Shown here: positions 34,227-59,908 of the stretch, piece after piece
Layout: each line of letters starts with the position of its first letter
Position numbering within the stretch: the stretch's first letter is position 1
DNA from: Chloroflexia bacterium
Lineage (GTDB): Bacteria; Chloroflexota; Chloroflexia; DTKN01
Direction of reading: 5' to 3'
DNA length: 64,000 bases
NCBI GenBank assembly: GCA_049970175.1
Contig: JBMFNL010000002.1
Coordinates: forward strand, 2,722 to 66,721
Translations under genes and position numbers: made by a program
The notes under the pieces: generated by a model
Seen by the model: the letters and a program-made list of their open reading frames with translations, nothing else
The model's database searches: none
What the model was told of the DNA's origin: nothing

Positions 34227-34232
34227 CTCCTC

Positions 34233-37874: not shown

Positions 37875-37875
37875 G

Positions 37876-39647: not shown

Positions 39648-39914
39648 ATGCCGGTCGAACTGCTGCACATCGGCTTCGGGAATATGGTGGTGGCCCGGCG
39701 CGTCGTGGCCGTCCTGGCCCCCGATTCGCTGCCGGTTCGCCGCCTGATTCGGGAGGCCCGCGAGCGCGGGGCGTTGCTGGATGCCAGCCGGGGCCGCAAG
39801 GTCCGGTCGGCCCTGGTGCTGGACAACGGCACCGTGGTCACCTCGGCCCTGCACCCCAGCACGATCGCCCGCCGGCTGGGGGCAGAAGAAGGGGAAAGGG
39901 ATGCAGGTGCCTGA
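39648..39914 (+). CDS. remA: DUF370 protein, RemA/YlzA-like biofilm regulator
   Basis: LLHIGFGNMVVARRVVAVL...LIREARERGALLDASRGRKVRSALVLDNG; remA-gmk synteny. Confidence 0.65.
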   Translation: MPVELLHIGFGNMVVARRVVAVLAPDSLPVRRLIREARERGALLDASRGRKVRSALVLDNGTVVTSALHPSTIARRLGAEEGERDAGA

Positions 39915-40551
39915 GCACCCCGAGGAACTGGACGAGGAGATGGCCCGGCTCATCGGCCGGCCGCCGCCCCTCCTCGTGGTGCTCTCCGGGCCTTCCGGGG
40001 TGGGGAAGGATGCGGTGATGGGGCGGATGAAGGAACGGGGCATCCCCATGCACTATACCGTGACGGCGACCACCCGTCCGCGTCGGCCGAACGAGGTGCA
40101 CGGCCGGGATTATTTCTTCCTCCCCACCGAGGAATTCCAGCGCCTGATCGCCCAGGGGGAACTCCTGGAGTGGGCGCTGGTCTATGGTGACTACAAGGGC
40201 ATCCCCAAGCAGCAGGTCCGCGAGGCCCTGGCCCGGGGCGAGGATGTCATCATGCGCATCGATGTCCAGGGGGCGACGACGATTCGCCGGCTGGCCCCGG
40301 AGGCGCTTCTCATTTTCCTGGCCCCGCCCAGCATGGACGAACTGGCCCGCCGGCTGCGGCAGAGGAGGACCGAGGGGGAGGGGGAACTGGAGCGCCGGCT
40401 GGAGGCCGCCCGGGAAGAGATGCGGGCCCTCCCGATATTCGATTACCTGGTGGTCAACTACGAGGGCCGGCTGGACGAGGCGGTGGACCGGATTCTGGCC
40501 ATCCTGCAGGCGGAAAAGAGCCGGGTGCGGCCCCGCCGGGTGGTGCTGTGA
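39901..40551 (+). CDS. gmk: guanylate kinase
   Basis: LLVVLSGPSGVGKDAV...YFFL...DYKG. Confidence 0.8.
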   Translation: MQVPEHPEELDEEMARLIGRPPPLLVVLSGPSGVGKDAVMGRMKERGIPMHYTVTATTRPRRPNEVHGRDYFFLPTEEFQRLIAQGELLEWALVYGDYKGIPKQQVREALARGEDVIMRIDVQGATTIRRLAPEALLIFLAPPSMDELARRLRQRRTEGEGELERRLEAAREEMRALPIFDYLVVNYEGRLDEAVDRILAILQAEKSRVRPRRVVL

Positions 40552-40586
40552 GCGTTTCCCCATCGCGCAGGGAGAAATGCGACCGG

Positions 40587-41366
40587 TTACTCCCGGGTGG
40601 TCGGGGATTCGACGTCCGGCCGGCGGAACGGGCCGGCCGCCCATACGGCCGGCCATTCGGCCCGGGCCCGGGCCAGGTTCTCGGGCGTGCCGATGTCGAT
40701 GAGGTATTCCGCCGGCGATAGCCGGTAGCCGTAGAGGGCGATGCCGAGGCGGAGGAGGTGCGGGAAAAGGTCCTGCCCAAAGTCGCACGGGCGCTTTTGG
40801 GGGAGGGCCTCCAGCACCTCCGGCTCGAGGAGGTAGATGCCGGCGTTGGCCAGGTCGCCGAAGGGTTGGGCCGGTTTTTCCACGAACGTCCGCAGCCGGC
40901 CGTCGGCCTCGAGTTCCACGATGCCGCAGCGCTGCGGGTCCGGGACGCGGTAGAGGGCCACCGTGCCCATCCCGCCGCGCCGGCGGTGGTACGTGTGCAT
41001 CGCCGTCAGGTCCAGGTTCGTCAGGACGTCGCCGTAGAGGACGAAGAAGGGGCGATCCAGGAAGTCGCGCAGCGGCTCCAGGGCGCCGGCCGAGCCCAGG
41101 AGGACCGGTTCGTAGGAGTAGCGGATGTGCAATCCCCAGGCCGCGCCATCGCCCAGGTGCTCGGGGATGGCCTGGGGGCGGTGATGCAGGTTGATGGCGA
41201 TTTCGGTGAGGCCGTGGAAGCGGCACAGTTCCAGGGTATAGTCCAGCGCCGGCCGGCCGCCCACCGGGAGGAGCGGCTTGGGAAGGCGGGCGGTGAGCGG
41301 CCGGAGCCGCCGACCCTCACCGGCGCAAAGGATCACCGCCCGAGGAAAAGCGGAACTCGCTTCCAT
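40587..41366 (-). CDS. sugar-phosphate nucleotidyltransferase (GlmU/RmlA/ManC-like N-terminal domain)
   Basis: AVILCAGEGRRLRPLTARLPKPLLPVGGRP...LYGDVL. Confidence 0.65.
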   Translation of the reverse strand: MEASSAFPRAVILCAGEGRRLRPLTARLPKPLLPVGGRPALDYTLELCRFHGLTEIAINLHHRPQAIPEHLGDGAAWGLHIRYSYEPVLLGSAGALEPLRDFLDRPFFVLYGDVLTNLDLTAMHTYHRRRGGMGTVALYRVPDPQRCGIVELEADGRLRTFVEKPAQPFGDLANAGIYLLEPEVLEALPQKRPCDFGQDLFPHLLRLGIALYGYRLSPAEYLIDIGTPENLARARAEWPAVWAAGPFRRPDVESPTTRE

Positions 41367-41386
41367 CGTGGACCCTCTCCGTTCGG

Positions 41387-42850
41387 ATGGGTGGCATGAA
41401 CATGCGCCGGAGGACGAGCGTGCCGCTGTACGGGGTTGCCCTCCTGGCCGCCCTGGCCGCCGGGGCCCTGTACGCGGCCGGCGCGGCCCCCGGCCTGACC
41501 CTGCGGTATGGCGGCAGCGACGGGGGGGAACTGGCCGTGGCCGTGTATACCCTGGGCATCCCCCATCCGACCGGCTATCCGACCTACGTCCTCCTGGCCC
41601 AGGCCGTCCGGCTGTTTCCCTGGGGGACGTTCGCCGGCCGGCTGAACCTCTTCTCGGCCCTGGCCGGCGCCCTCACCGTCGGGCTGGTGGCCCTCGTCGC
41701 CGGCGAACTTTTCCCGGAGGAAACGTTTTCCGCCCTGGTCGCCGCCCTGACGGCCGGCCTTTCCCTGGCCGTCTCCGGCCTCTTCTGGTCCCAGGCCCTC
41801 ATCGCCGAGGTCTATACCCTGCATACCTTCTTCCTGGCCCTTTCCTCCTGGCTGCTCCTACGCTGGCGGCGGCACGGGGGCCTTTACCTCCCGCTGGCCG
41901 GGCTCTCCCTCGGCCTGGGGCTGGGCAACCACCTGACGCTCCTTTTCCTCCTGCCGGGCGCGCTCCTCCTGCTCTCCGGGCGCCGTCCCTCCTGGGCGGA
42001 GGGGCTGGGGGGAGGTGGGCTTTTCCTGGCCGGCCTGGCCGTGTACCTCTACCTCCCGCTGCGTGCCGCCGCCGACCCCTGGCTCAACTGGGGCGATCCC
42101 CACGACTGGAGCGCCTTCTGGGCCCACATCAGCGCGGCGGCCTACCAGGGCCTTTTCTTCCGACGCCCCTGGTTGGAGGTGGCCGGCAACGCCAGCGCCG
42201 CCGCCGGCTTTCTCCTGCGCGATTTCGCCCCCCACGGCTTGGTGCTGGGCCTGGCCGGGCTCTTCCTCCTGGGCCGATGGGAGGGCCGGACGCTCCTCCT
42301 CCTGTTTTTCCCGGCCGTATCCGGCCTCCTCCTGGCCCTCACCTACGGCGGGGCCGGGAGCGAGGTGCACCTCCTCCCGCTTTACCTGGCCTGGGCCCTC
42401 GGCTGCGGGGTGACGGCCGGGGCGCTGGCCGCCTTCCTGCGTGGGCGCTTCGGCCTCCGGGCGGCCTCCGTCGCCCTGGCGTTGCCCCTGCTCTGCTTCC
42501 TCCTCATCGTGCCGGGCTGGGGGCGCTGGTCGCTCCGCAACGACCCCGGCCCGCTTCCCGAAATCCGCACCATCCTGGAAGGGCTGCCGCCGGACGGCCT
42601 CCTCCTGACCGCGCAGGATGAGCAGACGTTCCCGCTCTGGTATGCCCAGGTGGTGGAGGGCATCCGTCCGGATGTGGCCGTCGTAGACGTGCGCCTCCTG
42701 GAGTGGCCCTGGTACCGCCGGCAGTTGCCTGCGAGAAACCCCGGCCTCTTCCTCCCGGCCGAAGCGGAGGCGGGATGGCTGGAAGCGCTGCTCCGGGCCA
42801 ATTCCGGCCGGCCGGTCCTGGCCCTTTCCCCGCTGCCGCTGCCCCGGTAG
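41387..42850 (+). CDS. DUF2723/TMEM260-like polytopic membrane protein (GT-C fold glycosyltransferase-like)
   Basis: GIPHPTGYPTY motif; multi-TM. Confidence 0.5.
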   Translation: MGGMNMRRRTSVPLYGVALLAALAAGALYAAGAAPGLTLRYGGSDGGELAVAVYTLGIPHPTGYPTYVLLAQAVRLFPWGTFAGRLNLFSALAGALTVGLVALVAGELFPEETFSALVAALTAGLSLAVSGLFWSQALIAEVYTLHTFFLALSSWLLLRWRRHGGLYLPLAGLSLGLGLGNHLTLLFLLPGALLLLSGRRPSWAEGLGGGGLFLAGLAVYLYLPLRAAADPWLNWGDPHDWSAFWAHISAAAYQGLFFRRPWLEVAGNASAAAGFLLRDFAPHGLVLGLAGLFLLGRWEGRTLLLLFFPAVSGLLLALTYGGAGSEVHLLPLYLAWALGCGVTAGALAAFLRGRFGLRAASVALALPLLCFLLIVPGWGRWSLRNDPGPLPEIRTILEGLPPDGLLLTAQDEQTFPLWYAQVVEGIRPDVAVVDVRLLEWPWYRRQLPARNPGLFLPAEAEAGWLEALLRANSGRPVLALSPLPLPR

Positions 42851-42891
42851 GGCATAGCCCGGATGCGCCCGGACGCATCTGGGATGCGTCC

Positions 42892-43269
42892 CTACGCCTC
42901 CTCCTGGGAGGGGGCGGTCCTTCGCCTTCGCCTGCGCCCCTGAGGGGGAGGGGGGACCTGGCCGGAACGGATCGCCTCCTCGATGCCCTGCCGGATAGCC
43001 CGCTTCAGGGTCAAACTGGAGCGAAAACTGGGGGCCACGCGGGTGGGGTAGGGGATTCTCCCCAGCGTCCGGGGGTGCACCCCCAGCCGCTCCGGGTAGT
43101 AGCGCAGGTCAAAGGTGCCGAAGCGGGAGATGCGCACGATCTCCCCCTGGGCCAGGGCCCGGCCGATTTCCTCGAAGACGGCATCGAAGACGCGCCAGAC
43201 CGTGGTCTCGGGCAGGCGGGTGTGCTCGATCACCCGCTGCACCAGTTCCTCTCGAAGGACAACTTTCAC
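42892..43269 (-). CDS. HU-family DNA-binding protein with a basic C-terminal tail
   Basis: RISRFGTFDLRYYPERLGVHPRT...PSFRSS beta-arm pattern. Confidence 0.7.
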   Translation of the reverse strand: MKVVLREELVQRVIEHTRLPETTVWRVFDAVFEEIGRALAQGEIVRISRFGTFDLRYYPERLGVHPRTLGRIPYPTRVAPSFRSSLTLKRAIRQGIEEAIRSGQVPPPPQGRRRRRRTAPSQEEA

Positions 43270-43311
43270 GGAATCCTCCTTTCTTCCAAGGGCGCAACGG
43301 AATTGCGTTCC

Positions 43312-44997
43312 CTACGGACAGGTTGCCGGCCAGCAGATGCTGGCCTGGCGTATCGCCCGGTAGACCGTCTCGGCCTCGGCTGCGGGCAGCGGCCGGGGCT
43401 GATGGTAGTCCTCGATCTGGACGGCCTGCAACTGCAAGCCCACCGGGCGCGTTCCCCGAAAGGTGATGCGGGCGATCAGGCCCTGGCGGGTTTCGATGGA
43501 CCACATCTGGTCGGCGATAAAGTTGCCCAGGGAGTAGAGGATGGGGACGCCCCGATAGCGCTCCAGGCCCTGCACCCAATGGGGGTGGGAGCCGAGGACC
43601 AGGTCGGCGCCGGCCTCGACGGCCTGATGGGCCAGCGTCCGCTGCCAGGGGGAGGGGTCGTGGGTGTACTCCCAGCCCCAGTGGAAGTACACGATGACCA
43701 CATCGGCCTGCTGTCGGGCGGCGGCGATGTCCTCGGCGATCAGGGCGGGGTCGGCCGGCGCACTCCCGGCTCGCTCCTCTCCGGCCAGGTAGGCGTCGCT
43801 GATGGCATCATAGCCCAGGAAGGCCAGGGTGACCCCCTTGACCGTGAAGAGGGCCGGCCGGCGGGCCTCCGCCAGGTTCATCCCGGCCCCGAAGGGGGCG
43901 ATTCCGGCCTGCCGGAGCAGGTTCAGGGTATCGTCCATCCCCCTGGGGCCAAAGTTCATGCTGTGGTTGTTCGCCAGGGAGACCGCGTCGATTCCGGCAT
44001 AGCGCAGCCCGACGGTAAACCGGCCGCTGCCGACGAAGAGGAAGGTGTAGGGGTCGGCCGGCGGGGCGATCCGGTCCGAGAGCACCCCTTCCAGGTTGGC
44101 CACCGTCAGGTCGGCCCCCTCCAGGAGGGCGCGGGTCGGCGTGAAGGGGCGGGCATAGTCGCCGCCATGGGCCTGGATGCGCCGCCGGACGGCCCGGCCG
44201 GTGAAGATATCCCCCACGACGGCCACGGTGAAGGGGGGCGGCGGGGAGGCCGCCGGCCGCTCCAGGGCCCACAGGAGTTCCACGACCTCCTGGGGCAGGG
44301 TGGGCCGCCAGGCCAGGAAGAGGGTGCGCACCAGAGGGCTTCCGGGGACGCTCTCCTCCTCCAGCAGCAGGTCGCGCCCGTCCACCCGAAGGACGCGCAG
44401 CCCCACATCCACCTCCTCCAGCGGGAGCAGGGCGATGCCGCCGGGGTGCGTTTCCAGGGCGGAAAGGAGGGCGGCGGTGTCGCTCAGGGCCTGGGTGCCG
44501 GAGACCTCCAGGGGAAACGGAGGTTCCCCCAGGGTAAAGGGCACCACCGTGGCCGAAAGGGGCTGCCCCAGTTCGGCCCAGTTTTCGACCTCCCGACGGA
44601 AGAGGCGCTCCAGGTCGGCGTAGGCGACCTCGCTCACCGGCGACCAGAAGGACACGGCGGGGACGAAGAGGGTGGAGGTGAACGGGCGGGCCTGGAAATC
44701 GGGCGGGGGCGTGTAGCCGATGTAGAGGTCGGCCGGCCGGCCCTGGACCTCCCGGCAGGGGTGGCCCTGTTCGGCCAGAGAGCGGAGCAGGATCTTTCCC
44801 AGACCCTGCGGCGCGGCGCCGGATTCGACGGCCACGGTCAGGGGGAGCGGCGTCGGCTCCGGATCGGTGGGGCGGGCCGGGGCCGCCGGGGCCGTTTCCC
44901 CGGGACGGACGACCGCCGGCGGGACGGGCCCCGGAGCGCAGCCGGCCGAGACCAGGAGGAGGATGAGGATCGGGAAAAGGACGGACCGTTTCCACAT
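43312..44997 (-). CDS. CapA/PGA_cap-family lipoprotein (metallophosphatase-like)
   Basis: Lipobox LLLVSAGCAP; C-terminal VIVYFHWGWEY...LVLGSHPHWVQG...SLGNF. Confidence 0.7.
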   Translation of the reverse strand: MWKRSVLFPILILLLVSAGCAPGPVPPAVVRPGETAPAAPARPTDPEPTPLPLTVAVESGAAPQGLGKILLRSLAEQGHPCREVQGRPADLYIGYTPPPDFQARPFTSTLFVPAVSFWSPVSEVAYADLERLFRREVENWAELGQPLSATVVPFTLGEPPFPLEVSGTQALSDTAALLSALETHPGGIALLPLEEVDVGLRVLRVDGRDLLLEEESVPGSPLVRTLFLAWRPTLPQEVVELLWALERPAASPPPPFTVAVVGDIFTGRAVRRRIQAHGGDYARPFTPTRALLEGADLTVANLEGVLSDRIAPPADPYTFLFVGSGRFTVGLRYAGIDAVSLANNHSMNFGPRGMDDTLNLLRQAGIAPFGAGMNLAEARRPALFTVKGVTLAFLGYDAISDAYLAGEERAGSAPADPALIAEDIAAARQQADVVIVYFHWGWEYTHDPSPWQRTLAHQAVEAGADLVLGSHPHWVQGLERYRGVPILYSLGNFIADQMWSIETRQGLIARITFRGTRPVGLQLQAVQIEDYHQPRPLPAAEAETVYRAIRQASICWPATCP

Positions 44998-45021
44998 AGG
45001 CGGTCTCCTGATTTTGGGGAA

Positions 45022-45073
45022 ATTATACCACAGTTCGGCCTTTCTTGACAAAGCGGGGGGCGCATCGTACAAT
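45022..45073. promoter_or_regulatory. divergent promoters with overlapping -35: minus TTGTCA-N18-(TGg)TATAAT (capA) and plus TTGACA-N17-TACAAT (small ORF/prfA)
   Basis: Read directly; RBS AGGAG follows the minus -10. Confidence 0.5.
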
Positions 45074-45093
45074 AGAGGCGAAGACGGTATGGA

Positions 45094-45330
45094 GTGAACG
45101 AGGCGATGAGCGGGTCGCATCTTTTCTGGGAACCGCGGGATTATGAGCGCTACCTGGACCGCTACGAATGGGTCGGGGAGGGCCTTCCCCGGCTCAGTGC
45201 GGAAGAGTTCTTTCAGTTGCAGGACGAATTCCTGAGCCTCCAGGCCGACCAGGCGGCCGGCGGTTCGCTTTCGCCGGCGCAGCGGAAGCGGCTGCGGGAA
45301 CTGCGCCGGCTGCTTCTGGCCGATTTCTAG
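45094..45330 (+). CDS. hypothetical small protein
   Basis: 78-aa ORF between a promoter and prfA; no recognised motif. Confidence 0.3.
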
Positions 45331-45383
45331 GGTCGTTTTTCGGGGCCGAGGCCTTTCGGCCTGTCTTCCCCTGGGCAGGAGAA

Positions 45384-46451
45384 ATGTTCGAGAGCCTGGA
45401 TCGGGTGGTGGAACGGTACGAGGAGTTGCAGCGCCTGCTGGCCCGGCCGGAGGTGGCGACCGACCCGCGCCGTCTGCAGGAGTACGGCCGGGAACTGGCC
45501 GAACTGGAGGAACTGGTGAGCACGTACCGGGCCTACCGGGAGGTGGAGCGCCAGTATCGGGAGGCCGAGGAGATTCTGGGAAGCGGCGATGCGGAACTGG
45601 CGGCGCTGGCCCGGGAGGAACGCGAGGCCCTTCAGGCCCGGCTGGAGGAACTGGAGGGCCGGCTCAAGCAACTCCTGGTGCCGAAGGACCCGAACGACGA
45701 GCGCGATGTCATCGTGGAGATCCGCGCCGGCGCCGGCGGGGAAGAGGCCGCGCTCTTTGCCGGCGACCTCTTCCGCATGTACACCCGCTATGCCGAGTCG
45801 CAGGGCTGGAAGGTAGACCTTTTGAACACCCATCCCAACGACCTGGGCGGCTTCAAAGAGGTCATCTTCGAGGTCAAGGGGAAAGGTGCCTACAGCCGGC
45901 TCAAATACGAAAGCGGCGTCCACCGCGTCCAGCGCGTCCCGGTTACCGAGGCTGGCGGGCGGATCCACACCTCCACGGCCACGGTGGCCGTGCTTCCGGA
46001 GATGGATGAGGTGGAGGTGGAGATCGACCCCGAGGACCTGCGCATTGACGTCTTCCGTTCGGCCGGCCACGGGGGCCAGAGCGTCAACACCACCGACAGC
46101 GCCGTGCGCATCACCCACCTGCCCACCGGCATTGTGGTCACCTGTCAGGACGAGCGCTCCCAGTTGCAGAACCGGGCCCGGGCGATGGCCGTGCTGCGCG
46201 CCCGCCTCTACGCGATGGAGGAGGAGAAGCGCCGGCGCGAACTGGGCGAGAAGCGCCTGGCCCAGATCGGCAGCGGAGAGCGGGCGGAAAAGATTCGCAC
46301 CTACAACTTTCCCCAGGATCGGGTGACCGACCACCGCCTGGGGCGCAACTTCAGCAACCTGCCGGCCATCCTGGACGGCCACCTGGACGAGATCATCGAG
46401 GCCCTGACGCTAAAGGACCAGGCCGAGCGGCTGGAGACGGTCACCCGTTGA
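45384..46451 (+). CDS. prfA: peptide chain release factor 1
   Basis: [20 protein letters not shown] with the GGQ motif and RF1-specific PxT-like region. Confidence 0.9.
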
Positions 46452-47512
46452 TCGCTCGACGGCCGGCCGGCCCGCCGAAAGGAACCGTCTTGACCCATCC
46501 GGAAGTTTCGCCCCCGCCGCCGGACCTGAAGCGGCGCTTTCTCAACTGGCGCACCCTCCTTTCCTTCGTCATCGCCGTCGGCCTGATCGTCCTGACGGTC
46601 TGGCTGGGCCGGATCGACCTGGGTCAGGTGTGGGACTATGTCCGGCAGGCCGATCCTCGCTTCTACTTCCTGGGCTTTCTGGCCTTTTATCCCACCTTTC
46701 CCCTGCGGGCCTGGCGCTGGCGGCTGCTCCTTCAGAACGCCTCGGCCGAAGAAGATGCCCCCATCCCCCATCTTCCCGACCTGACGGAGATCCTCTTTCT
46801 CTCCTGGTTCGCCAACTGCCTCGTCCCGGCCAAACTCGGCGACCTCTACCGCGGCTACCTCCTGAAGCGCACCAGCGGGGCCTCTTTCTCCCGCACCATC
46901 GGGACGATCCTGGCCGAGCGGGTGCTGGACATGGTCTTTTTGTTCCTCCTTATGCTTGCCGCCAGCCTGGCCGCCTTCGGCCCGCGTATCCCGTCCGGCA
47001 CCACGGCCACCATGGTCTATGGGGTGGGCATCTTCCTTTCGGCGGTCGCCGTTGGAGTCCTGCTGGGGCTGCGCTTTTTCGGGCCGGCCCTGCGGAGGCT
47101 TGTGCCGGCCCGTTTCCACGGCATTTACGACCGTTTCATCGAGGGGACGCTCCTCTCCTTCCGCCGGCGGCGCCTCGTCCTCCTCCTGGGCCAGACCGTC
47201 CTGGTCTGGGTTCTGGAGAGCCTGCGCTTCTACTGCGTCCTCCTGGCCTTTCCGGAGTCCGTGCCCCTGGGCCTGCCGGTCGTCGTCTTCATCGCCCTGG
47301 CCGGTTCGCTCCTGACCACGCTGCCGATTTCCCCGGCTGGCCTGGGGGCGGTGGAGGCCATGTTCGCCTGGGTCGTGCCGCTCTTCCTGAGCATGGGGGC
47401 CGAACAGGCCCGGGCGGTCGGCCTGGCCCTGGGCATGCTCGACCGCACCATCAACTACTGGAGCATCCTCCTCCTGGGGTTCCTCGTCTTCCTGCTGAGC
47501 CGAAAGAAGTGA
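46448..47512 (+). CDS. flippase-like/UPF0104 (lysyl-PG synthase TM-domain-like) membrane protein
   Basis: 8-TM profile; TTG start overlaps the prfA stop. Confidence 0.5.
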
Positions 47513-47550
47513 GGCCGACCCTCTGTCCTTCTTCCCCTGCGCCCTGACCC

Positions 47551-49220
47551 CTACCGCACCCCCCACAGCCGCACCGTGCCGTCACGCGACCCTGAGGCGA
47601 GGAAGTTTCCGTCGGGGGAGAAGGCCACGCTAAAGACCCGAGAGGTGTGCTCCAGGGTGCGCAGGAGTTCGCCGTCGGCGGCCCGCCAGAGGCGCACCGT
47701 GTGGTCCTCCGACCCCGAGGCCAGGGTCTGCCCGTCGGGGGAGAAGGCCACGCTCTCCATTGGGGCGCCCGTTTCGATGAAGCGCACCTCCTCCAGGGTC
47801 TGAGCGTCGTAGAGGTACACCCCGATGGAAGAGGCCACCGCCAGGAATCGGCCGTCGGGGGAGTAGGCGATTTCGTGTACCATCCCCTTGCCCCAGCGGG
47901 CCAGTTCGCGCACCCGGTCGGCGTTCTCGGGAGAGAGGGCTGCGGCGGGTTGGGGCACGGGCGTGCCGGAAAGGACGGGAAGCGGCAACGGAGTCGGGGT
48001 AGGCGTCGGGGTGGAGGTGGATGTGGGCATCGGGGTCGGAGTGGAGGTGGCCGTCGGCGTGGAGGTGGGCCGCGCCGTGGGCCCGAGGGCGGCGACGGGG
48101 GTGGGGGAAACCGCCGGCCGGCCCAGCACTCCGCCCATGTAGAGGCCGGCCAGCACCAGGAGCACCACCGCCAGGAGGCCCGCCCCGGCCGGTACCCAGG
48201 GCCGTCGGGCGGCCCCTTTCCGCGGCGCCGCAGGTCGGGGCAGCGGTGGGGGGGCAGGCCGGGGTGGAGGTGGCGCCGGGAGCAACTCCGTCGCTACTTC
48301 GGTTTCCTGCAGCACGGTCTCGGCGCCGCCCTCACCCCACTCCCCCGGCCCCCTCTCCCCTCTCCCAATGGGAGAGGGGGTTGGGGGTGAGGGGTGAGGA
48401 CAGCGCCGCCGCCAGCGCGGCCATGTCCGGGTAGCGGTCCTCCGGGGCCTTGGCCAGCGCCTTGAAGAGCACCCGCTCCGCCGCCTCCGGCAGGTCCGGC
48501 GCGTAAGCCCTCGGCCGGGGAAGCGGCTCCGTGGCTTGCTTCAAAAGCACCGCCATCGGCGTATCGGCCGTGTAGGGCTTGCGCCCGGTCACCAGTTCGT
48601 AGAGCACCACTCCCAGGGCATAGACGTCGGCCCGGGCGTCCACCGGCCGGCCCAGCCCCTGCTCCGGAGCCATGTACTCCGGCGTGCCCACCCCCCCGTC
48701 CCGGTGAGCGTTGTCTCCTCGCTCTCCAGGAGTTTGGCGATGCCAAAGTCGGAAAGCATGGGCTCCCCGGAAAGGGTGATGAGGATGTTGGAGGGCTTGA
48801 CATCGCGGTGGATAAAGCCCCGCTGGTGGGCAAAGTGCAGGGCGCGGGCGATGGGGAGGAGCAGGCGCACCGCCTCCTCCCAGGGGAAGGGCCGGCCGGC
48901 CCGCGCCTCCAGCAACTTCTTGAGCGTCCCGCCGGGGAGATACTCCATCACCAGGTAGGGGGAGCCCTCGTGCTCGCCGTAGTCGATGAGGGCCACGATG
49001 TTGGGATGGGTCAGGCGGGCCAGGGCCTTGGCCTCCCGCTCGAAGCGCCGGAGGATGCGCTCCCGTTGTTCGGGGGGGAAGGCCCCCTTGCGGATGACCT
49101 TGAGGGCCACATCGCGCTCCAGCCGGGTATCATAGGCCCGGTAGACGGTGGCCATCCCCCTTCCCCCAGTTGCTCGACGATGTGGTAGCGCCCGATGGAC
49201 TGGCCGACGAGAGAGCCCAT
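47551..49220 (-). pseudogene. Hanks-type Ser/Thr protein kinase with TM helix and C-terminal WD40 domain, disrupted by three frame changes
   Basis: Successive pieces in different frames: MGSLVGQSIGRYHIVEQLGEGG | [10 protein letters not shown]...[10 protein letters not shown]...DFGIAKL...TGTGG | [11 protein letters not shown]...[10 protein letters not shown] | TM helix plus WD40 repeats. The breaks fall at a G5 run (~49156-49160, plus-strand C5), a G7 run (48689-48695, plus-strand C7) and inside the palindromic repeat (48331-48399). Confidence 0.55.
48331..48399. repeat. G/C-rich palindromic repeat element, copy 1
   Basis: CTCACCCCACTCCCCCGGCCCCCTCTCCCCTCTCCCAATGGGAGAGGGGGTTGGGGGTGAGGGGTGAGG; close to the reverse complement of copy 2; flanked by GCGCCGCC on both sides. 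Confidence 0.6.
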
Positions 49221-49258
49221 CTGCCCCTCCTTTCGTCGAACGGCGTCTTTCTGGAAAT

Positions 49259-49339
49259 ATTTTACCACGCCGGCCGGCGCAGGTCAAACCGGCCTGAAAT
49301 GGCAACCAGGTTGACAGCCCCACGGGCGAGTGTTAGAAT
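49259..49339. promoter_or_regulatory. divergent promoters: minus TTGACC-N17-TAAAAT (kinase) and plus TTGACA-N17-TAGAAT (ccmE operon)
   Basis: Read directly; a ~165-nt leader containing several hairpins precedes ccmE. Confidence 0.45.
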
Positions 49340-49505
49340 GCTTTCGTCGCCGGGTGGGCGGCCTCGAACCGGATGGCGACGTTTCTCCATAGGCCAGGCC
49401 CGGCCGAGCCGGTGGAACGTGCACCGGCCGTATGTGGAAGCGGTCTACCCAACTGCGGTCCGCCTGCAGGGCAATACAGGTGGGTTGGTTTCTGGAGGTA
49501 AAGCC

Positions 49506-49910
49506 ATGAAGCCGGTATACATCATCGGGGGCATCGTCATACTGGCGGCGGTTGTGTTAGGGGCTTTGGCCTTGGTCAATACCCTCACCCCCTACGTCTC
49601 CATCGCCGAGGCGCGGGCCACCGGTCGCACCGTGCAGGTGCACGGTTTCCTCAAGGAGACGCTGGGCTATGATGCGGAGGGCCGCTTCCGCTTCGTCCTG
49701 GTGGATGAAAAGGGCGATGAGATGGCCGTGGCCTACGGTCAGGCCAAGCCGGCCAACTTTGAGCAGGCCACCGGCTTTGTTGTCATCGGCCGCTACGATG
49801 CCGCCGCCCAACTTTTCCTGGCCGAGCAACTCCTGGTCAAGTGCCCCTCCAAGTACCAGGAGCAGGGGGAGGAGTACCGGCATCAGCAATCCGGGGAGAG
49901 CGCCCCATGA
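49506..49910 (+). CDS. ccmE: cytochrome c maturation heme chaperone CcmE, CxxxY variant
   Basis: N-terminal TM helix; OB-fold region; C-terminal KCPSKY in place of the canonical HxxxY. Confidence 0.65.
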   Translation: MKPVYIIGGIVILAAVVLGALALVNTLTPYVSIAEARATGRTVQVHGFLKETLGYDAEGRFRFVLVDEKGDEMAVAYGQAKPANFEQATGFVVIGRYDAAAQLFLAEQLLVKCPSKYQEQGEEYRHQQSGESAP

Positions 49911-52465
49911 CGGTCGGACCGCTGTTCCTGGTCGGGGCCTTCCTCTCGGCTCTGGGGGGGATGGGGGCTTCCTGGCAGGTCATTCGGGGAGACCGCCGGG
50001 CCCTGCGTTGGGCCCGCCTCCTGGCCGTTCTGGCCCTGGTCCTGGTGGGCGTTGCCTCGGCCCTCTTGCTGGGGCTCATCCTGGCCCAACGCTACGACGT
50101 GGCCTATGTCTACCTGAACACCTCGCGCGACCTGGCCTTTTTCTACCGCCTTTCCGCCTTCTGGGCCGGTCAGGAAGGCAGCCTGCTCCTCTGGCTCCTC
50201 CTCACGGCCGTCCTGACCGTGCTCCAGATTCGCCGTGCCCGCCTGCTGGAGCCGTACGTGCTCTTTTTCCTTCTCCTCATCCAGGCCGGCCTGACCGTCT
50301 TCCTTCTGGTGGACAGTCCGTTTACGCCGACGGCCGAGGTGGTCCCGCCGGGCCAGGCGATCCTGGACGGCCAGGGGTTGAAGCCGATCTTGCAGAATGT
50401 CTGGATGGTGGCCCACCCGCCGATGCTCTTCCTGGGCTATGCCGGGATGGCCGTGCCCCTGGCCTATGCGCTGGCCGGCCTCTGGCGCCGTGATTACGAG
50501 GGATGGGTGTGGCCGGCCCTTTCCTGGGGACTTTTGGGTTGGCTTTTTCTGGGCTTGGGCATCCTCCTGGGCGCTTTCTGGGCCTATGAGACGCTGGGTT
50601 GGGGCGGCTACTGGGGTTGGGACCCGGTGGAGAACAGTTCCCTCCTCCCCTGGCTCACCGGAACCGCCCTCCTCCACGGCCTGCTCATCCAGCGCTATCG
50701 CCGGCGGCTGGGCCACGGCAACTTGATCCTGGCTTGGCTGACCTATCTCCTGGTGCTCCTGGCCACCTTCCTGACCCGCAGCGGCGTCCTGGGGGCAGCC
50801 TCGGTACATTCGTTTGCGCCGAGCGCCCTGACGCCGTGGATGCTGGGGCTGATGGCGCTGGTGGCGGCGGCCGGCGCCATTCTACTGGCCTCGCGCTGGA
50901 ACGACCTTCCGCCCGGCCCGGTCTTTGCCGGGCCGCGGAAGGGAAGGGGCCGCCCCATCCAGGGGGAAACGGCCGGTACGGTGGGCCCCAACCTGGCCTC
51001 CTGGTTTTCCCGGGATTTCACCTTTCTCCTGACCATCCTGCTTCTGCTCCTCGTGGCCCTCCCCATCCTGGCCGGCACCTTGCTACCCGTGTTTTCCCAG
51101 TGGTTCGGGCGGCTGACGCAGGTGGACGTGTCGTTCTATCCCCAGACGACCGGACCGGTCCTGGCCGTGTTGCTCCTGGTGTTGGGGCTGTGTCCACTTC
51201 TGGGCTGGTCGGGAAGCGCGATCGGGCGGCTGGGCCGGATGCTCATCGTCCCGGTGGTTCTGGCCGTCGGTGCGCTTGGCGCGGCCGCCCTGCTGGGGGC
51301 CGGCCGTCTCGATTCTCTGTTTTTGATCTTTCTGGCGGTCCTGGCCCTGGCCTCGAACGTGGCGATGGTGGTGCGTACCGTTCGCCGGGGATTTTTACCT
51401 CTGGGCGGGTATCTGGCCCACATCGGTCTGGGCTTGCTGGTGGTCGGTGTGGTGGCTTCGTCGGTCTATAATGTGGACTATCGGGATGCGCAGGGGCGCT
51501 CTTCCCTGCTTCTGCCGGCGAATCGGGCGCAGGAGGCGCTGGGGTATCGTCTCACCTTTGTTCAGCGGCAGGAAAGCGGTGTTCCTTCCCAAGAGCAACA
51601 AACCCATCCGGCCCGCCCGGTGTATTATATCCTGGTGGAGCGCGGTTCCGAGCGCTTTCTGGCCCGGCTGGAGGAACTGGAATGGAACGCCCAGGACGGC
51701 AGCCTGGGAACGTGGCCCTATGTGGGGCGTTATCTGACCCATGACCTCTATATCGCCGCCCATGCCTATTTCCCCGGCAGTGGGGAGGAGGCCGTCCTGG
51801 AGCCGGGGCAGGAGGCCGTGCTGGCCGGCCGTACCTTCGTCCTCCGGGAAGTGCGGGCCGCGCCTCCCTATGTCCAGGTAGCGCTGACGGTGCGGGAAGC
51901 AGGCATCAGCCGGACCATCACCCCCACCTACGCCATGGCGGGCACATCGGCCCACGGCCGGCCGGCCTCCCTCCCCGACGGTACGGTGGTCTCGGTCGAG
52001 GAGGCCGGTTTCAGCCTGGACCTCTTTGAGGGACAGCCGCTGGCCATGGGCACCTATACGGTGACCCTGCGCGACCTGGTCGTGCTTCAACACAACCTCG
52101 TGACCCAGACGGTGGCCGGGGCGGTGATCGAGTGGGCCGCTCCGGCGGGCATCACCGTCATCACGCCGACCTGGGTGGTGAGTAGCGAGGGTGCCGAAGG
52201 CCCTCCGCTGACGCTTCCTTCCGGCGAGACGGTGCGCCTCGACGGGATGGACGTGACCGGCGGCTTCGTCCGGCTGTTGCTCTCCCGGCCGGGCCTGGTC
52301 TGGCTGACGGTGCAGCGTCCCGAGGACCTGCTCGGCACCCTGGTGGTGCAGGTCAGCATCAAGCCCGGCATCAACCTGCTCTGGGCGGGCGGGGTGCTCC
52401 TGCTTTTGGGGACGGCCGTGGCCCTGGTCCGGCGCTGGCGGGAGGGCCGACAGTTATTGACATAA
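49907..52465 (+). CDS. ccmF: cytochrome c-type biogenesis heme lyase CcmF
   Basis: WGGYWGWDPVENSSLLPWL WWD motif; 874-aa polytopic protein; ATGA overlap with ccmE. Confidence 0.8.
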   Translation: MTVGPLFLVGAFLSALGGMGASWQVIRGDRRALRWARLLAVLALVLVGVASALLLGLILAQRYDVAYVYLNTSRDLAFFYRLSAFWAGQEGSLLLWLLLTAVLTVLQIRRARLLEPYVLFFLLLIQAGLTVFLLVDSPFTPTAEVVPPGQAILDGQGLKPILQNVWMVAHPPMLFLGYAGMAVPLAYALAGLWRRDYEGWVWPALSWGLLGWLFLGLGILLGAFWAYETLGWGGYWGWDPVENSSLLPWLTGTALLHGLLIQRYRRRLGHGNLILAWLTYLLVLLATFLTRSGVLGAASVHSFAPSALTPWMLGLMALVAAAGAILLASRWNDLPPGPVFAGPRKGRGRPIQGETAGTVGPNLASWFSRDFTFLLTILLLLLVALPILAGTLLPVFSQWFGRLTQVDVSFYPQTTGPVLAVLLLVLGLCPLLGWSGSAIGRLGRMLIVPVVLAVGALGAAALLGAGRLDSLFLIFLAVLALASNVAMVVRTVRRGFLPLGGYLAHIGLGLLVVGVVASSVYNVDYRDAQGRSSLLLPANRAQEALGYRLTFVQRQESGVPSQEQQTHPARPVYYILVERGSERFLARLEELEWNAQDGSLGTWPYVGRYLTHDLYIAAHAYFPGSGEEAVLEPGQEAVLAGRTFVLREVRAAPPYVQVALTVREAGISRTITPTYAMAGTSAHGRPASLPDGTVVSVEEAGFSLDLFEGQPLAMGTYTVTLRDLVVLQHNLVTQTVAGAVIEWAAPAGITVITPTWVVSSEGAEGPPLTLPSGETVRLDGMDVTGGFVRLLLSRPGLVWLTVQRPEDLLGTLVVQVSIKPGINLLWAGGVLLLLGTAVALVRRWREGRQLLT

Positions 52466-52522
52466 ATAAACGTCGGCTTTGGGGATGAGCCGACCGCTTC
52501 AGGCTGAACGAAGGAGGAAAGG

Positions 52523-53068
52523 ATGCAACAGGCGCAGCACAGATGGCTCGTGGTGGTCCTGGCGGCTCTGGGCGGCCTGGTCCTAGGGATGGTGCTCGGC
52601 ACCCTGTTCGGCGGCGTCGCCGGCTACATCCTGGGGCGAGGCTCTCTGCCTCTGGTGGAGGTCGAAGCCACTCCCACCCCGCCGCCGCGCCTGACGGTGC
52701 CGGCACTTCCCTGGAGGTGGCCTTTCTGTCCCCCCTGTCCGGAGACTCCTCCGGAAGCCCGGCCGGAGGAAAGGCCCACGCCGCTTCCGGGGGTGTTGGG
52801 AGCCCGGGTGGAACGGGTATTGCCGGACACGCCGGCCGAGGAGGCCGGCCTGCGGCCGGGGGATGTGATCGTTGCCGTGAACGGTGAGCGGATCACGCCG
52901 GAACGCTCCCTGGCCGACCTGCTCGCCCGCTACCGCCCGGGCGACACGGTCACGCTCACGGTACGGCGGGACAACGAGAGGCTGGAAATCCAGGTACGCC
53001 TGGGCGAGCACCCGGAACGGCCCGGCCAGGCGTACCTGGGCATCTATTTCACCCCGTCCCGGCCCTGA
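52523..53068 (+). CDS. membrane-anchored PDZ-domain protein with a CPPC motif (possible CcmH/CcmG-like thiol-disulfide role)
   Basis: TM helix, then WPFCPPCPE, then a PDZ-like LGARVERVLPDTPAEEAGLRPGDVIVAVNGERI. Confidence 0.45.
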   Translation: MQQAQHRWLVVVLAALGGLVLGMVLGTLFGGVAGYILGRGSLPLVEVEATPTPPPRLTVPALPWRWPFCPPCPETPPEARPEERPTPLPGVLGARVERVLPDTPAEEAGLRPGDVIVAVNGERITPERSLADLLARYRPGDTVTLTVRRDNERLEIQVRLGEHPERPGQAYLGIYFTPSRP

Positions 53069-53077
53069 GCGGGTCGT

Positions 53078-54241
53078 CTACAACCGTCCCAGGGCCTCGC
53101 GCATCCGCTCCAGCGCCTTCTGGATGTTGGCGATGGAGTTGGCATAAGAGAGGCGCAGGTAACCCTCGCCGTACTCCCCGAAGGCGGTTCCCGATAGGAC
53201 GGCTACGCCGGCCTCCTGGAGGAGGTAGTCGGCGATCTCCTTCGAGGGCCGGCCCAAGGCCTGGACGTTGGGGAAGGCGTAAAAGGCCCCGGCCGGTGTC
53301 CGGCAACGCACCCCCGGTATGGCGTTCAGCCCGGCCACGATGACATCGCGTCGCCGGCGAAACTCGGCGACCATCTGTTCCACCGCCTCCTGCGGACCGG
53401 TCAGGCCGGCGATGCCGGCCCGCTGGGTGAAGGCGGCCGTGCAGGAAACGCTGTTGGTGACCAGACGGGTGACCCCCGCGGCCAGGGCCTCCGGCATGAC
53501 CCCGTAGCCCATGCGCCAGCCGGTCATGGCATAGGTCTTGGAGAAGCCGTCCAGGATGATCGTCCGTTCCGGCATCCCGGGCAGGGAGGCGATGCTCACA
53601 AACTCCCCCTCGTAGAGGATGCGGGAGTAGATTTCGTCGGAGAGGACGTAGGCATCGTTCTCCTGGACCAGTTCGGCGATGGTCTCCAGGTCGGGCCGGC
53701 TGAGGACACCGCCGGTGGGGTTTTGCGGGGAGTTGATGATCACCAGTTTGGTGCGTCGGTTGATGGCCCGGCGGAAGATATCCAGATCGAAGGCAAAGTC
53801 GTTCTCCTCCAGGAGCGGGACCGGCACCGCTTTGGCTCCGACAAAGTTGATCATCGATTCGTAGATCGGGAAGCCGGGGTTGGGGTAGATGACCTCATCG
53901 CCGGGGTCCACCAGGGCCAGGATGGTGAAGAAGATGATCGGCTTGCCTCCGGGGACGATGACCACGTTTTCCGGTCGGACCGGGATATGGCGGGTGCGGG
54001 CGACCTCTTCGGCCACGGCCTCTCGCAATTCGGGGATGCCGGCCGAGGGGGTGTAGTGGGTGTGGCCGGTTCTCAGGGCCTGGACGGCGGTTTCGATAAT
54101 GTTGGTGGGGGTGTCGAAGTCGGGTTCGCCGATCTCCAGGTGGATGACCTCGCGTCCCTGGGCCTCGAGGGCTTTGGCCTTGGCCAGCACCTCGAAGGCC
54201 GTCTCTGTTCCCAGGCGGCTCATCCGTTCGGCGAAACGCAT
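53078..54241 (-). CDS. aspartate/aromatic aminotransferase (class I PLP)
   Basis: NSPQNPTG...SKTYAMTGWRMGY lysine motif. Confidence 0.8.
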   Translation of the reverse strand: MRFAERMSRLGTETAFEVLAKAKALEAQGREVIHLEIGEPDFDTPTNIIETAVQALRTGHTHYTPSAGIPELREAVAEEVARTRHIPVRPENVVIVPGGKPIIFFTILALVDPGDEVIYPNPGFPIYESMINFVGAKAVPVPLLEENDFAFDLDIFRRAINRRTKLVIINSPQNPTGGVLSRPDLETIAELVQENDAYVLSDEIYSRILYEGEFVSIASLPGMPERTIILDGFSKTYAMTGWRMGYGVMPEALAAGVTRLVTNSVSCTAAFTQRAGIAGLTGPQEAVEQMVAEFRRRRDVIVAGLNAIPGVRCRTPAGAFYAFPNVQALGRPSKEIADYLLQEAGVAVLSGTAFGEYGEGYLRLSYANSIANIQKALERMREALGRL

Positions 54242-54312
54242 GTCTTCCTCCTCATTGAGACTGGGGGCAGGGCCACCTCGTCCTGCCAGAATGCCGTTGA
54301 CGTTCCACGCTT

Positions 54313-54540
54313 TTACCCTCCGCCCAGGAGGGGGATCAGGCGCACTTCGTCGCCCTCCTGGAGGAGGTGGTCCTTCTGCACGAGGGAACCGTTGACCAGC
54401 ACGGCGCCCACCAGAGCGGAGGGGATGCCCAGGTGGTCCAGCACCTCACGCACCGGTCGGCCGGCCCAGCCCTCGATGGAGAGGGCTTCCTGCCCTCCGG
54501 CATATTGGCGCAGGATGCCCACCGCAAGGATGCGAACCAC
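54313..54540 (-). CDS. ThiS/MoaD-like sulfur-carrier protein (ends in GGG)
   Basis: 75 aa, beta-grasp-like, C-terminal LIPLLGGG; own promoter CTTGTGGTATAAT at 54585-54597. Confidence 0.4.
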   Translation of the reverse strand: MVRILAVGILRQYAGGQEALSIEGWAGRPVREVLDHLGIPSALVGAVLVNGSLVQKDHLLQEGDEVRLIPLLGGG

Positions 54541-54666
54541 GGTCGGAAATCCTTTCGTCGCTTCGTTCGGTAGATGTGCCCCACATTATACCACAAGTTT
54601 GGAGGCGCTTCCCCGCCCACGTCCTCGGCCGCGACGTCCTGGCCGTGCGCAGCCCTTCGCTCCTGC

Positions 54667-57453
54667 TCACCGCGCCGGCCGCACCACGACGTTCACCAGC
54701 CGGTTCGGCACGACGACGACCCGCACCACCTCCTGGCCGGCCAGGTAGGGCTGCAGGCGTTCCAGGGCGAGCGCCCGCGCCCGAACCTCCTCCTCGGCCA
54801 GATCCGCCGGGATGCGCATCTGGGCCCGCACCCGGCCGTTCACCTGGACGGCCACCTCCACTTCCTCCAGGGCGGCCAGGGCCTCATCGTAGGCCGGCCA
54901 GGACTGCTCATGGATGCTGTAGGGCCGGCCCAGCCGGGCCCACAGTTCCTCGGTGATGTGCGGGGCCAGCGGGGCCAGCATCAGGAGCAGGGCCTCCACC
55001 GCCTCGTCCCAGGCGGCCGAGTTCCGCAGCGGCGTCTCCCGTACCTTCATCAGGACGTTCGTGAGTTCCATCAACCGGGCCAAGAGGGTGTTGAAGCGAA
55101 AGGCCTCGATGTCGGCGGTGACCACCCGGATGGTACGGTGCACCAGACGGCGCAGCGCCTCCTCGCCCATCTCGGCCGGCCGGTCCGTGCGCTCCGGCTC
55201 CTCCAGCACCAGCGTCCAGACGCGGTTCAGGAAGCGGTGCACGCCCTCGATGCCCTGGCTGGACCAGGGCCCGCCCTCCTCCCAGGGGCCGATGAACATG
55301 AGGAAGCAGCGCACCGTGTCGGCCCCGTACTTTTCCACCAGGTCGTCGGGGGCGACCACGTTGCCCCGCGATTTGCTCATCTTTTCGCCGTCCTCGCCCA
55401 GAATCGTCCCCTGGTTGAAGAGCCGCAGCATCGGCTCGTCGAACCAGACCAGGCCCATATCCCGGAGCACCTTGGTGAAGAAGCGGGTGTAGATCAGGTG
55501 CATGGTGGCGTGCTCGATGCCGCCGGTATACTGGTCCACCGGCAACCAGTAGCGGGCCACCTCGGGGTCAAAGGGCCCCCGGTCATAGTGCGGGCTGAGG
55601 TAGCGGTACTGATACCAGGAGGAGCAGACAAAGGTGTCCATCGTATCGGTCTCGCGTTCGGCCGGCCCCCCGCACTGTGGACAGGTAGTACGGCGAAAGC
55701 CCTCGTGAAACTTGAGCGGGGATTCTCCGGTGGGGCGGAAATCGACGTCCTCCGGGAGCAGCACCGGCAGTTCCTCTTCGGGAACGGGGACGGTGCCGCA
55801 CCGGGGGCAGTAGATGATGGGAATCGGCGCACCCCAGTAGCGCTGGCGGGAGATCAGCCAGTCGCGCAGGCGGTAGTTGACGGCGAAATCGCCGATGCCT
55901 CGCTCTTTCAGCCACTCGGTGGTGCGCTTCACGGCTACATCTCCGGGGGTTCCGGTGAGCGGCCCGGAGTTGATCATGGTGCCGTAATCGGCGTGGAAGA
56001 GCATGTCCCGGTAGAACTCCACATCCCAAAGCATCTCCGCCACCGTGCGTTTGTCCCGTACCGAGGGCGAAAGCGACCTGCACCGCTCCAGCACGTGCCT
56101 CTCCTCCTCGATGGAACCCACGTTCATCACCCCGCCGTCAAAGACCAAGTGCCATCCGGCTCCCACCACTTCCGTCCAGCAGCCCGGCCGGATGAAACGC
56201 CCTACGATGTGGAGGTAGCGTTCTCGTTCTTGTTCCCTCAAGGTGACATATAGAGAGTCGTCCTTTTCCTCAAAGGCCCAGCCCGCCTCCCGCAGCGCAT
56301 CGGCCAGGCCGTCCCGGTAGGTGCCCCGCCTCACCACGCTTCGGGCCACCTCCTGTCGCGGAGCGATGACCGGGATGACCGGCAGGCCGTACTTCAGGGC
56401 GAACTGGAAGTCGCGTTCGTCGTGGGCGGGGACGCCCATAATGGCCCCCGTCCCATAGGTCATCATCACATAGTCGGCGATCCAGATGGGGATGTGTTCG
56501 CCGTTGACCGGGTTGACCGCATAGGCCCCGATGAAGACACCGGTCTTTTCCTTTTCGGTGGAGAGGCGTTCGATCTCGCTCCGGCGGGCGGCCTGATACC
56601 GGTAGGCGGCGACCTCCTCCTGATGCTCCGCTGTGGTGAGTTTTTCCACCAGGGGATGTTCCGGAGCCAGCACCATGAAGGTGGCTCCCCAGAGGGTATC
56701 GGGACGGGTGGTAAAGACCTCGATGCCCTCGCCCGTTTCCGCGCGGAAGACGACGTTGGCTCCCTCGCTCCGCCCGATCCAGTTGGTTTGCATCGTGCGT
56801 ACCCGCTCCGGCCAGTCGATCTGGGAGAAATCGAGCAGTTCCTCGGCATAGGCGGTGATTTTGAAGAACCACTGCTCCAGTTCCTTGCGGATGACCGGCG
56901 TGCCGCAGCGTTCGCAGTGGCGGTCTTCGCCCCAGACTTGTTCGCGGGCCAGGGTGGTGTTGCATTTGGGGCAAAAGTCCACCGGCGCATACTTGCGGTA
57001 GGCCAGGCCGCGCTTGTAGAACTGGAGGAAAAACCACTGCGTCCAGCGGTAGTATTCAGGGTCGGAGGTGATGGCCTCGCGGTCCCAGGCCCACATGGCC
57101 CCCATCGAACGCAGTTGCCGGCGCATCCGGGCGATGTTTTCATAGGTCCAGGTCTTGGGGTGGATGCCGTGGTTGATGGCCGCGTTTTCGGCCGGCAGCC
57201 CGAAGGCGTCGAAGCCGATGGGGAAGAAGACGTTGTAGCCCCGCATCCGCAGATAGCGGGCCTTGGCATCCGAAGGGGCCATGGCGTACCAGTGGCCCAG
57301 ATGCAGGTCGCCCGAGGGGTAGGGGAGCATGGTCAGAAAGTAGAACTTGGGGCGGGAAGGGTCCTCGACCGTGCGGTAGAGGCCGCTTTCCTCCCAGCGC
57401 TTCTGCCATCGGGCTTCGATCTCCGTCGGGTGATAACGTTCGGCCATGGTCAA
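54667..57453 (-). CDS. leuS: leucine--tRNA ligase
   Basis: YPSGDLHLGH (HIGH) and KMSKS motifs; 928 aa. Confidence 0.9.
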   Translation of the reverse strand: MTMAERYHPTEIEARWQKRWEESGLYRTVEDPSRPKFYFLTMLPYPSGDLHLGHWYAMAPSDAKARYLRMRGYNVFFPIGFDAFGLPAENAAINHGIHPKTWTYENIARMRRQLRSMGAMWAWDREAITSDPEYYRWTQWFFLQFYKRGLAYRKYAPVDFCPKCNTTLAREQVWGEDRHCERCGTPVIRKELEQWFFKITAYAEELLDFSQIDWPERVRTMQTNWIGRSEGANVVFRAETGEGIEVFTTRPDTLWGATFMVLAPEHPLVEKLTTAEHQEEVAAYRYQAARRSEIERLSTEKEKTGVFIGAYAVNPVNGEHIPIWIADYVMMTYGTGAIMGVPAHDERDFQFALKYGLPVIPVIAPRQEVARSVVRRGTYRDGLADALREAGWAFEEKDDSLYVTLREQERERYLHIVGRFIRPGCWTEVVGAGWHLVFDGGVMNVGSIEEERHVLERCRSLSPSVRDKRTVAEMLWDVEFYRDMLFHADYGTMINSGPLTGTPGDVAVKRTTEWLKERGIGDFAVNYRLRDWLISRQRYWGAPIPIIYCPRCGTVPVPEEELPVLLPEDVDFRPTGESPLKFHEGFRRTTCPQCGGPAERETDTMDTFVCSSWYQYRYLSPHYDRGPFDPEVARYWLPVDQYTGGIEHATMHLIYTRFFTKVLRDMGLVWFDEPMLRLFNQGTILGEDGEKMSKSRGNVVAPDDLVEKYGADTVRCFLMFIGPWEEGGPWSSQGIEGVHRFLNRVWTLVLEEPERTDRPAEMGEEALRRLVHRTIRVVTADIEAFRFNTLLARLMELTNVLMKVRETPLRNSAAWDEAVEALLLMLAPLAPHITEELWARLGRPYSIHEQSWPAYDEALAALEEVEVAVQVNGRVRAQMRIPADLAEEEVRARALALERLQPYLAGQEVVRVVVVPNRLVNVVVRPAR

Positions 57454-57468
57454 CCTCCTGGCATTCCT

Positions 57469-58287: not shown

Positions 58288-58590
58288 CGGGCGCTCCTCC
58301 AACAGAAAGACCTCCGTCCCACAGGGACGGAGGCGCTCCGCGGTACCACCCTGTTTGGCCGGCCGCGCTCCTCCCGAGAAAACCCGCAAGGGCGCAGACT
58401 CCGGCCCACTCCTTGGGCCCGGTAACGGGGGCCAACCGGCGCCGGCTAATGACGGTGGGACAACCGCGTTCACCGGCGCGGCTCCCGGGCGAGTTCGGCC
58501 CTGGACTTGCGGCCTCGCACCGGCTGGCCGCTCTCTGGCTCGGCGGGCCTACTACTCCCGTTCGCCGCCGTTCGTCGGCCAAGTTTGAAG
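58288..58590 (-). promoter_or_regulatory. T-box riboswitch leader, Leu specifier CUC
   Basis: Minus-strand AAACAGGGTGGTACCGCGG T-box motif (58338-58356), terminator CCTCCGTCCC-TGTG-GGACGGAGG followed by UCUUUCUGUU (58301-58333), GA/K-turn GGGAGUAGUAGG, AGAGA S-turn, specifier loop CCGAACUCGCC (CUC at 58491-58493). Confidence 0.7.
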
Positions 58591-58593
58591 AAA

Positions 58594-58652: not shown

Positions 58653-58687
58653 GAAAACAACATATACCTTTTGGAAAGGAAAACGGC

Positions 58688-59905: not shown

Positions 59906-59908
59906 CCT

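Follow-up and report, generated by a model that had tools for sequence, protein, structure and literature searches.

The minus-strand gene at positions 47551-49220 of the 64-kb stretch of DNA analysed here (the window) raises the question of whether a protein kinase is still encoded at this locus or whether its gene has been lost. A single gene lies in the region, from the ATG at 49220-49218 to a terminal stop that ends at 47551, and its product is a Hanks-type Ser/Thr kinase joined to a transmembrane (TM) helix and three WD40 repeats. When we translated the region in three frames, the coding sequence was found to be split across three reading frames in four pieces (segments A-D), which confirmed the three frame changes recognised in the preliminary description. 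The features of the region are as follows.

49259-49287, minus strand: promoter-like site, sigma-70-like and TG-extended, TTGACC-N17-TAAAAT (10/12 matches), upstream of the putative pseudogene
49226-49230, minus strand: GGAGG ribosome-binding site (RBS), 5 nt 5' of the ATG, read from the sequence
49156-49220, minus strand: segment A, the ATG and codons 1-22 (MGSLVGQSIGRYHIVEQLGEGG), frame 2 (start mod 3), ending in the G5 run
49156-49160, minus strand: G5 run, break 1, one base missing, directly after the Gly-loop codons
48698-49155, minus strand: segment B, kinase subdomains I-VII, frame 0 (start 49155), MATVYRAYD...VALK...HRDVKPSN...DFG...TGTGG
48691-48697, minus strand: G7 run of the coding strand, seen as C7 on the plus strand; break 2, needing +1 nt (G8 or an ancestral 4 nt)
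48400-48690, minus strand: segment C, kinase subdomains VIII-XI, GTPEYMAPE...AAAL, frame 1 (start 48691)
48321-48408, no strand: imperfect palindrome of 88 nt (core 48330-48399, 70 nt, CCTCA...TGAGG), break 3, predicted BoxC/TM-type triplex-motif element
48315 onwards, minus strand: segment D, a linker, the TM helix, a Pro/Thr-rich linker and three WD40 repeats, frame 0
48121-48198, minus strand: predicted TM helix WVPAGAGLLAVVLLVLAGLYMGGVLG, frame D, read from the translation
47551-47882, minus strand: three WD40 repeats followed by the stop codon, with a C-terminus (VRLWGVR) that matches those of homologues

In the unrepaired sequence, translation initiated at the ATG halts after 69 codons, so no kinase is made. 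For the in silico repair, we added one G at each of the two runs and deleted the palindrome (70 or 88 nt), and the three repairs together gave an uninterrupted ORF of 533 aa. Repair of the first site only gave 210 aa and repair of the first two gave 296 aa; full restoration needs all three. The repaired protein showed one continuous match to Pkinase (PF00069), covering positions 1-253 of 263 (E = 7.7e-53), together with the WD40 repeats. The catalytic motifs, described earlier as recognisable, were all present (Gly loop, VAxK, HRDxKxxN, DFG and (S/T)xxYxAPE) and aligned with invariant columns of the homologues, and the repair junction, at which LGEGG is followed by MATVY, also falls on columns that are invariant among them. 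In the window itself, the domain is spread over the frames of segments A, B and C, rather than lying in the one uninterrupted reading frame of a Hanks kinase.

Since the sequence at break 2 is TGTG-x-G[VI]GTPEY in all 13 homologues examined, with one residue more than in the repaired protein, the loss of a single base at this break is a minimal reading and not a demonstrated one. For example, an ancestral ACGGGGGTGGGGGTGGGC becomes exactly the present sequence when GTGG is removed, and a 4-nt deletion may explain break 2 as well as the one-base loss that serves as the minimal repair.

These results refine the preliminary description at several points. Its proposal of single-base losses in the two G runs fits as the minimal repair, but the G7 site is equally well described by the 4-nt deletion. 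The G5 run lies where it had been placed, whereas the G7 run, given there as 48689-48695, is actually at 48691-48697. The statement that the C-terminal part returns to the first frame was wrong, as segment D shares the frame of segment B (both 0) and differs from segment A (frame 2). The promoter and RBS said to be retained were both found, and the third break, which had been left without an explanation, coincides with the 3n+1 palindromic repeat. The window as a whole (67.7% GC) contains no homopolymer longer than 7 nt, although runs of 7 and of 6 occur 11 and 36 times, respectively.

The region contains two promoter-like sites, where 0.1 would be expected. The second is a strong plus-strand site, TTGACA-N17-TAGAAT at 49311-49339 (11/12 matches), which faces ccmE/ccmF and stands back to back with that of the kinase gene. 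This back-to-back arrangement may be a partial explanation of the conserved intergenic region.

The ancestral protein and its relatives

A comparison with solved structures placed the kinase domain nearest to PknB (E = 6e-58); for the WD40 part, it gave matches to PkwA (5yzv) and to a WD40 protein of Nostoc (2ymu). The closest intact relative of this architecture, a 496-aa protein that we call P0042, was found on three contigs; its kinase is fused to the same three-blade form, and its C-terminus reads VRLWGVR(P). We considered that the three-blade WD40 end of the present gene had arisen by C-terminal truncation or decay, and rejected this, as the intact P0042 has the same three blades and C-terminus. 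Since P0042 shares this architecture, the short three-blade form is predicted to be ancestral to the subfamily. As a positional orthologue P0042 was rejected, its neighbours being unrelated. Downstream of P0042, about 1.1 kb of contig L207 (6318-7470) carries no called gene.

In a collection of 5.8 billion proteins, no intact near-identical allele was found; identity is about 50% for the best full-length relatives and reaches 75% for matches to the kinase domain only. An intact positional orthologue in a sister species was sought through CcmF in genome contigs and was not found, and since the best CcmF relative is only 51% identical, no ancestral state can be read by synteny.

The ancestor was a receptor-type Hanks kinase, and the basic stretch PRKGAARRP, which precedes the TM helix, suggests that its kinase domain lay in the cytoplasm and its WD40 repeats outside. 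Three-blade WD40 fragments assemble into closed propellers (PDB 6r5z), and by analogy the three-blade ectodomain could have worked as an oligomer. Elsewhere in the window, two adjacent FHA-domain genes (FhaA_N+FHA and FHA; 37080-38322, plus strand) lie downstream of tsaE and a TsaD-family gene, the latter recognised by a TsaD match that is partial (model positions 31-126 of 264). Signalling by Ser/Thr kinases usually has FHA domains as its partners.

Occurrence of the breaks in other assemblies

Contigs of the same species were found by a look-up of the neighbouring CcmE and LPG-synthase-like proteins, which led to two other NCBI MAGs and one ENA metagenome.

L001 (GCA_049971335.1): window 48335-59910; 9 SNPs, 0 gaps; covers both G runs
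L002 (GCA_049700575.1): window 48890-59353; 11 SNPs, 0 gaps; covers the G5 run
L003 (ENA ERZ3623746, SPAdes-style short-read contig): window 49009-50884; identical, 0 gaps; covers the G5 run

Two contigs reach the downstream part of the gene, L084 (aligned to window 39863-48156) and L085 (46078-48276). They come from the same two other MAGs and show one shared gap each, at the following site.

48108-48110, minus strand: polymorphic site, coding-strand TTT in the window against TT in the two other MAGs, where it shifts the frame a fourth time, after the TM helix and before the WD40 repeats

This deletion is the sole indel in about 20 kb compared between the strains, and it lies inside the kinase gene. 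The kinase part differs by two SNPs, of which that at 48979 is synonymous and that at 49005, in L001 and L002, replaces the Pro of the HPN motif, an invariant residue, by Ser (Pro73Ser). An extra 1-nt deletion in two strains and the Pro73Ser change are what relaxed constraint would leave; the numbers are small, and both changes run in the same direction, which points to a decay that is still under way. One more contig (L206) ends 8 nt before reaching the polymorphic site and is uninformative here.

The same deletion bears on a reading in which each fragment works as a gene of its own, with, for example, the 254-aa TM-WD40 ORF acting alone as a membrane WD40 protein. NCBI annotates this ORF as a 'WD40 repeat domain-containing protein' (MGC8958296.1), and three-blade fragments can form propellers, as in 6r5z. 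However, the ORF is cut by the 1-nt deletion in two sister strains, and only a 159-aa ORF is called in the TM-WD40 part of L085. Its GTG start also lacks a convincing RBS, and P0042 has its kinase fused. When we looked up eight candidate start variants of the fragments by exact match, all were absent from the protein collection. Separate working genes are a very unlikely account of the locus.

We then consider whether the breaks are assembly or sequencing artefacts, with the homopolymers under-called and the real gene intact. The comparison of homopolymer lengths among sister strains, which the preliminary description had proposed, showed the same G5 run in four assemblies (the window, L001, L002 and L003) and the same G7 run in two (the window and L001), representing at least three haplotypes. 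Since these assemblies differ by SNPs but carry identical runs with no gaps, it is very unlikely that reads would show G6 and G8. One of the supporting contigs, L003, is a SPAdes-style short-read contig, and the kinase fragment called as a gene in L002 begins directly after break 1, with the ATG at 49155. The extra indel of the other strains, moreover, is at an A3/A2 site and not at a long run.

The window contains about 234 G/C runs of length 5, 32 of length 6 and 11 of length 7, and five adjacent same-strand ORF pairs elsewhere in it were tested as candidates for split genes. None was shown to be split, in agreement with the earlier view that the other long genes of the window are intact: eight of the ten ORFs have their own different domain above the Pfam cut-off, a ninth (MFS_1) falls below the cut-off, and the tenth (33279-34232, minus strand) matched no family, which makes its pair uninformative. 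A GC3 frame census for further split genes in the window yielded only adjacent distinct genes. With hundreds of G/C runs of 5-7 nt and no split gene among the tested pairs, systematic homopolymer error is very unlikely.

In favour of an artefact, a G8 would be the longest run in the 64-kb window, where no homopolymer exceeds 7, and all MAG contigs break in this region, as in a region that is hard to assemble. Every other assembly of the species breaks inside the gene, the contig ends being at 48100, 48156, 48276, 48335, 48890 and 49009, and the palindrome and the kinase/WD40 paralogues are the likely causes. For break 3, the reproduction in independent sequence data is partial and concerns 48335-48408, which L001 also carries. 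Positions 48277-48334, which hold the junction of the palindrome with frame D, are seen in the window's own assembly only, as the other MAG contigs end at 48276 and begin at 48335. Confirmation of break 3, which depends on the exact length of the element, is therefore incomplete. Taken together, an assembly artefact is very unlikely as the cause of the breaks.

The preliminary description had left the choice between a pseudogene and a phase-variable gene, in which slipped-strand mispairing at the G tracts would toggle the kinase. Both early breaks are indeed at G runs, and the promoter-like site and RBS are retained. The tract lengths, however, were invariant wherever they were covered, in four assemblies for G5 and in two for G7. 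Tracts of 5 and 7 are also short, since G/C tracts of these sizes are at or below the length that is appreciably hypermutable in Neisseria, Campylobacter and Helicobacter. Furthermore, no single tract change switches the ORF on: restoration requires that both tracts and the 3n+1 palindrome be changed, and in two strains the fourth site as well. The shared runs without gaps and the presence of at least three lesions support the pseudogene and render phase variation highly improbable.

Programmed recoding, by ribosomal -1 frameshifting or transcriptional slippage at the G runs, has hardly any prospect: in frame B the G7 site does read acG GGG GGG, which has the form of an X XXY YYZ heptamer, and a -1 slip there would give TGGVGTPEY (read from the sequence), but the context of site 1 (A GGG GGA) is not a slippery heptamer, break 3 requires the opposite shift and has an in-frame TGA, the three events combined would have negligible efficiency, and the homologues have no frameshift at these sites.

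The palindromic repeat at the third break

The 88-nt palindrome has arms of 39 nt that are 85% complementary, and it folds into a hairpin of -94 kcal/mol (z = -6.9). Comparison of the two copies in the window suggested either 70 or 88 nt as its boundaries. Both lengths are 3n+1, as required for the change from frame C to frame D, and the frame is restored when either is deleted. Read in frame C, the palindrome also provides a TGA stop at 48332-48334. The second copy is located as follows.

62664-62755, no strand: second, diverged palindrome copy, in an intergenic region flanked by two divergent genes, that of an acylphosphatase (62304-62585, minus strand) and rplI (about 62895-63344, plus strand)

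On the plus strand, positions 48358-48393 carry the tri-block CCCTCTCCC-AAT-GGGAGAGGG-GGTTGG-GGGTGAGGG, for which none is expected in shuffled sequences. It has the pyrimidine block, the complementary purine block, the mirror purine block and the short loops by which BoxC/TM elements are recognised, and on this basis the palindrome is predicted to be the known BoxC/'TM' G/C-rich intrastrand triplex motif. Its location is not intergenic, as 48321-48408 sits between the kinase and TM coding segments. A scan of the region against Rfam gave only sub-threshold matches to microRNA precursors on both strands of the palindrome, which are generic matches to a long hairpin.

The 22-nt arm CTCACCCCCAACCCCCTCTCCC occurs exactly in at least 120 metagenome contigs (L086-L205) from many habitats and in many sequence contexts. 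Its copies are often at contig ends, sometimes followed by a T-run in a terminator-like arrangement and sometimes present as inverted pairs.

The inverted arms of the palindrome are clear, and GCGGCGC stands on both of its flanks. As GCGGCGC is also found at the left end of copy 2, a target-site duplication is indistinguishable from the element's own sequence, and no clear duplication can be defined from the two copies. It is conceivable, although we consider it rather doubtful, that the palindrome arrived, as one discrete unit of 70 or 88 nt, in a coding sequence that was still intact. If so, the locus would be a natural example of a BoxC/TM motif that was inserted, whether mobile or copied by repair, and was mutagenic, as opposed to one that arose in place in intergenic DNA.

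Probable loss of the kinase gene and comparison with known systems

Based on these observations, we suggest that the locus is very probably a genuine pseudogene of a kinase-TM-WD40 gene in an uncultured Chloroflexia species, common to all sampled strains in which a given break is covered. Its intact ancestor would have encoded a cytoplasmic kinase domain, one TM helix, a Pro/Thr-rich linker and a three-blade WD40 ectodomain. First, one base would have been lost at a G run, directly after the Gly-loop codons. Second, one base, or four, would have been lost in the G-rich stretch before GTPEYMAPE. Third, a 3n+1 palindromic repeat of the BoxC/TM type would have come to lie in the post-kinase linker, where it shifted the frame and supplied the TGA. 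Finally, later decay would account for the further 1-nt deletion and the change of the invariant Pro to Ser in two sister strains. Since no catalytic motif has been lost and both the promoter-like site and the RBS are intact, the inactivation appears to be recent, and there may be residual expression of the gene fragments.

For annotation, the N-terminal fragments are best described as one pseudogene, and the 254-aa 'WD40 protein' would not be a separate gene. Frameshifted kinase paralogues are common in genomes that are rich in Ser/Thr kinases, and the pseudogene itself is ordinary and matters little. The only mildly unusual point is the triplex-motif palindrome within coding sequence; it offers a clean case of a predicted BoxC/TM-type palindrome of frame-breaking length inside a former ORF, which bears on the spread of the motif and on genome instability.

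The predicted ancestral protein belongs with the bacterial Hanks-type receptor kinases that carry beta-propeller sensors, such as PkwA of Thermomonospora curvata (kinase and WD40), PknB and PknD of M. tuberculosis and the kinase-TM-WD40 proteins of Chloroflexota MAGs. It shares with its homologues the order of an N-terminal kinase, a single TM helix, a Pro/Thr linker and WD40 repeats. It differs from them in the three interruptions of its ORF (four in two strains), in having three WD40 blades where most homologues have five or more, and in the absence of one activation-segment residue and of the Gly of one WD40 'GH' dipeptide.

The BoxC/TM motif of E. coli is reported to be always intergenic and has been linked to local genome instability, its origin and means of spread having been left open (Holder et al. 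2015, Nucleic Acids Res 43:10126, PMC4666352). The three blocks of the palindrome described here, CCCTCTCCC-loop-GGGAGAGGG-loop-GGGTGAGGG, are those of the TMECO-type copies of E. coli tabulated in that work (PMC4666352). Its two strands bear the TT-loop and CC-loop versions in inverted orientation, like the paired type A and type B of E. coli (PMC4666352), and it too is multi-copy and extremely widespread. In contrast to the intergenic motif of E. coli (PMC4666352), the copy at break 3 is located within what was once coding sequence, whose frame it disrupts. Its second loop is also longer or, equivalently, its blocks extend to 11 nt.

A further likeness is to the Rickettsia palindromic elements (RPEs) and bacterial MITEs, with which the present element shares the occurrence of a short palindromic repeat within protein-coding sequence. 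RPEs are typically in frame and tolerated, whereas the element found here is 3n+1 in length and carries a stop codon.
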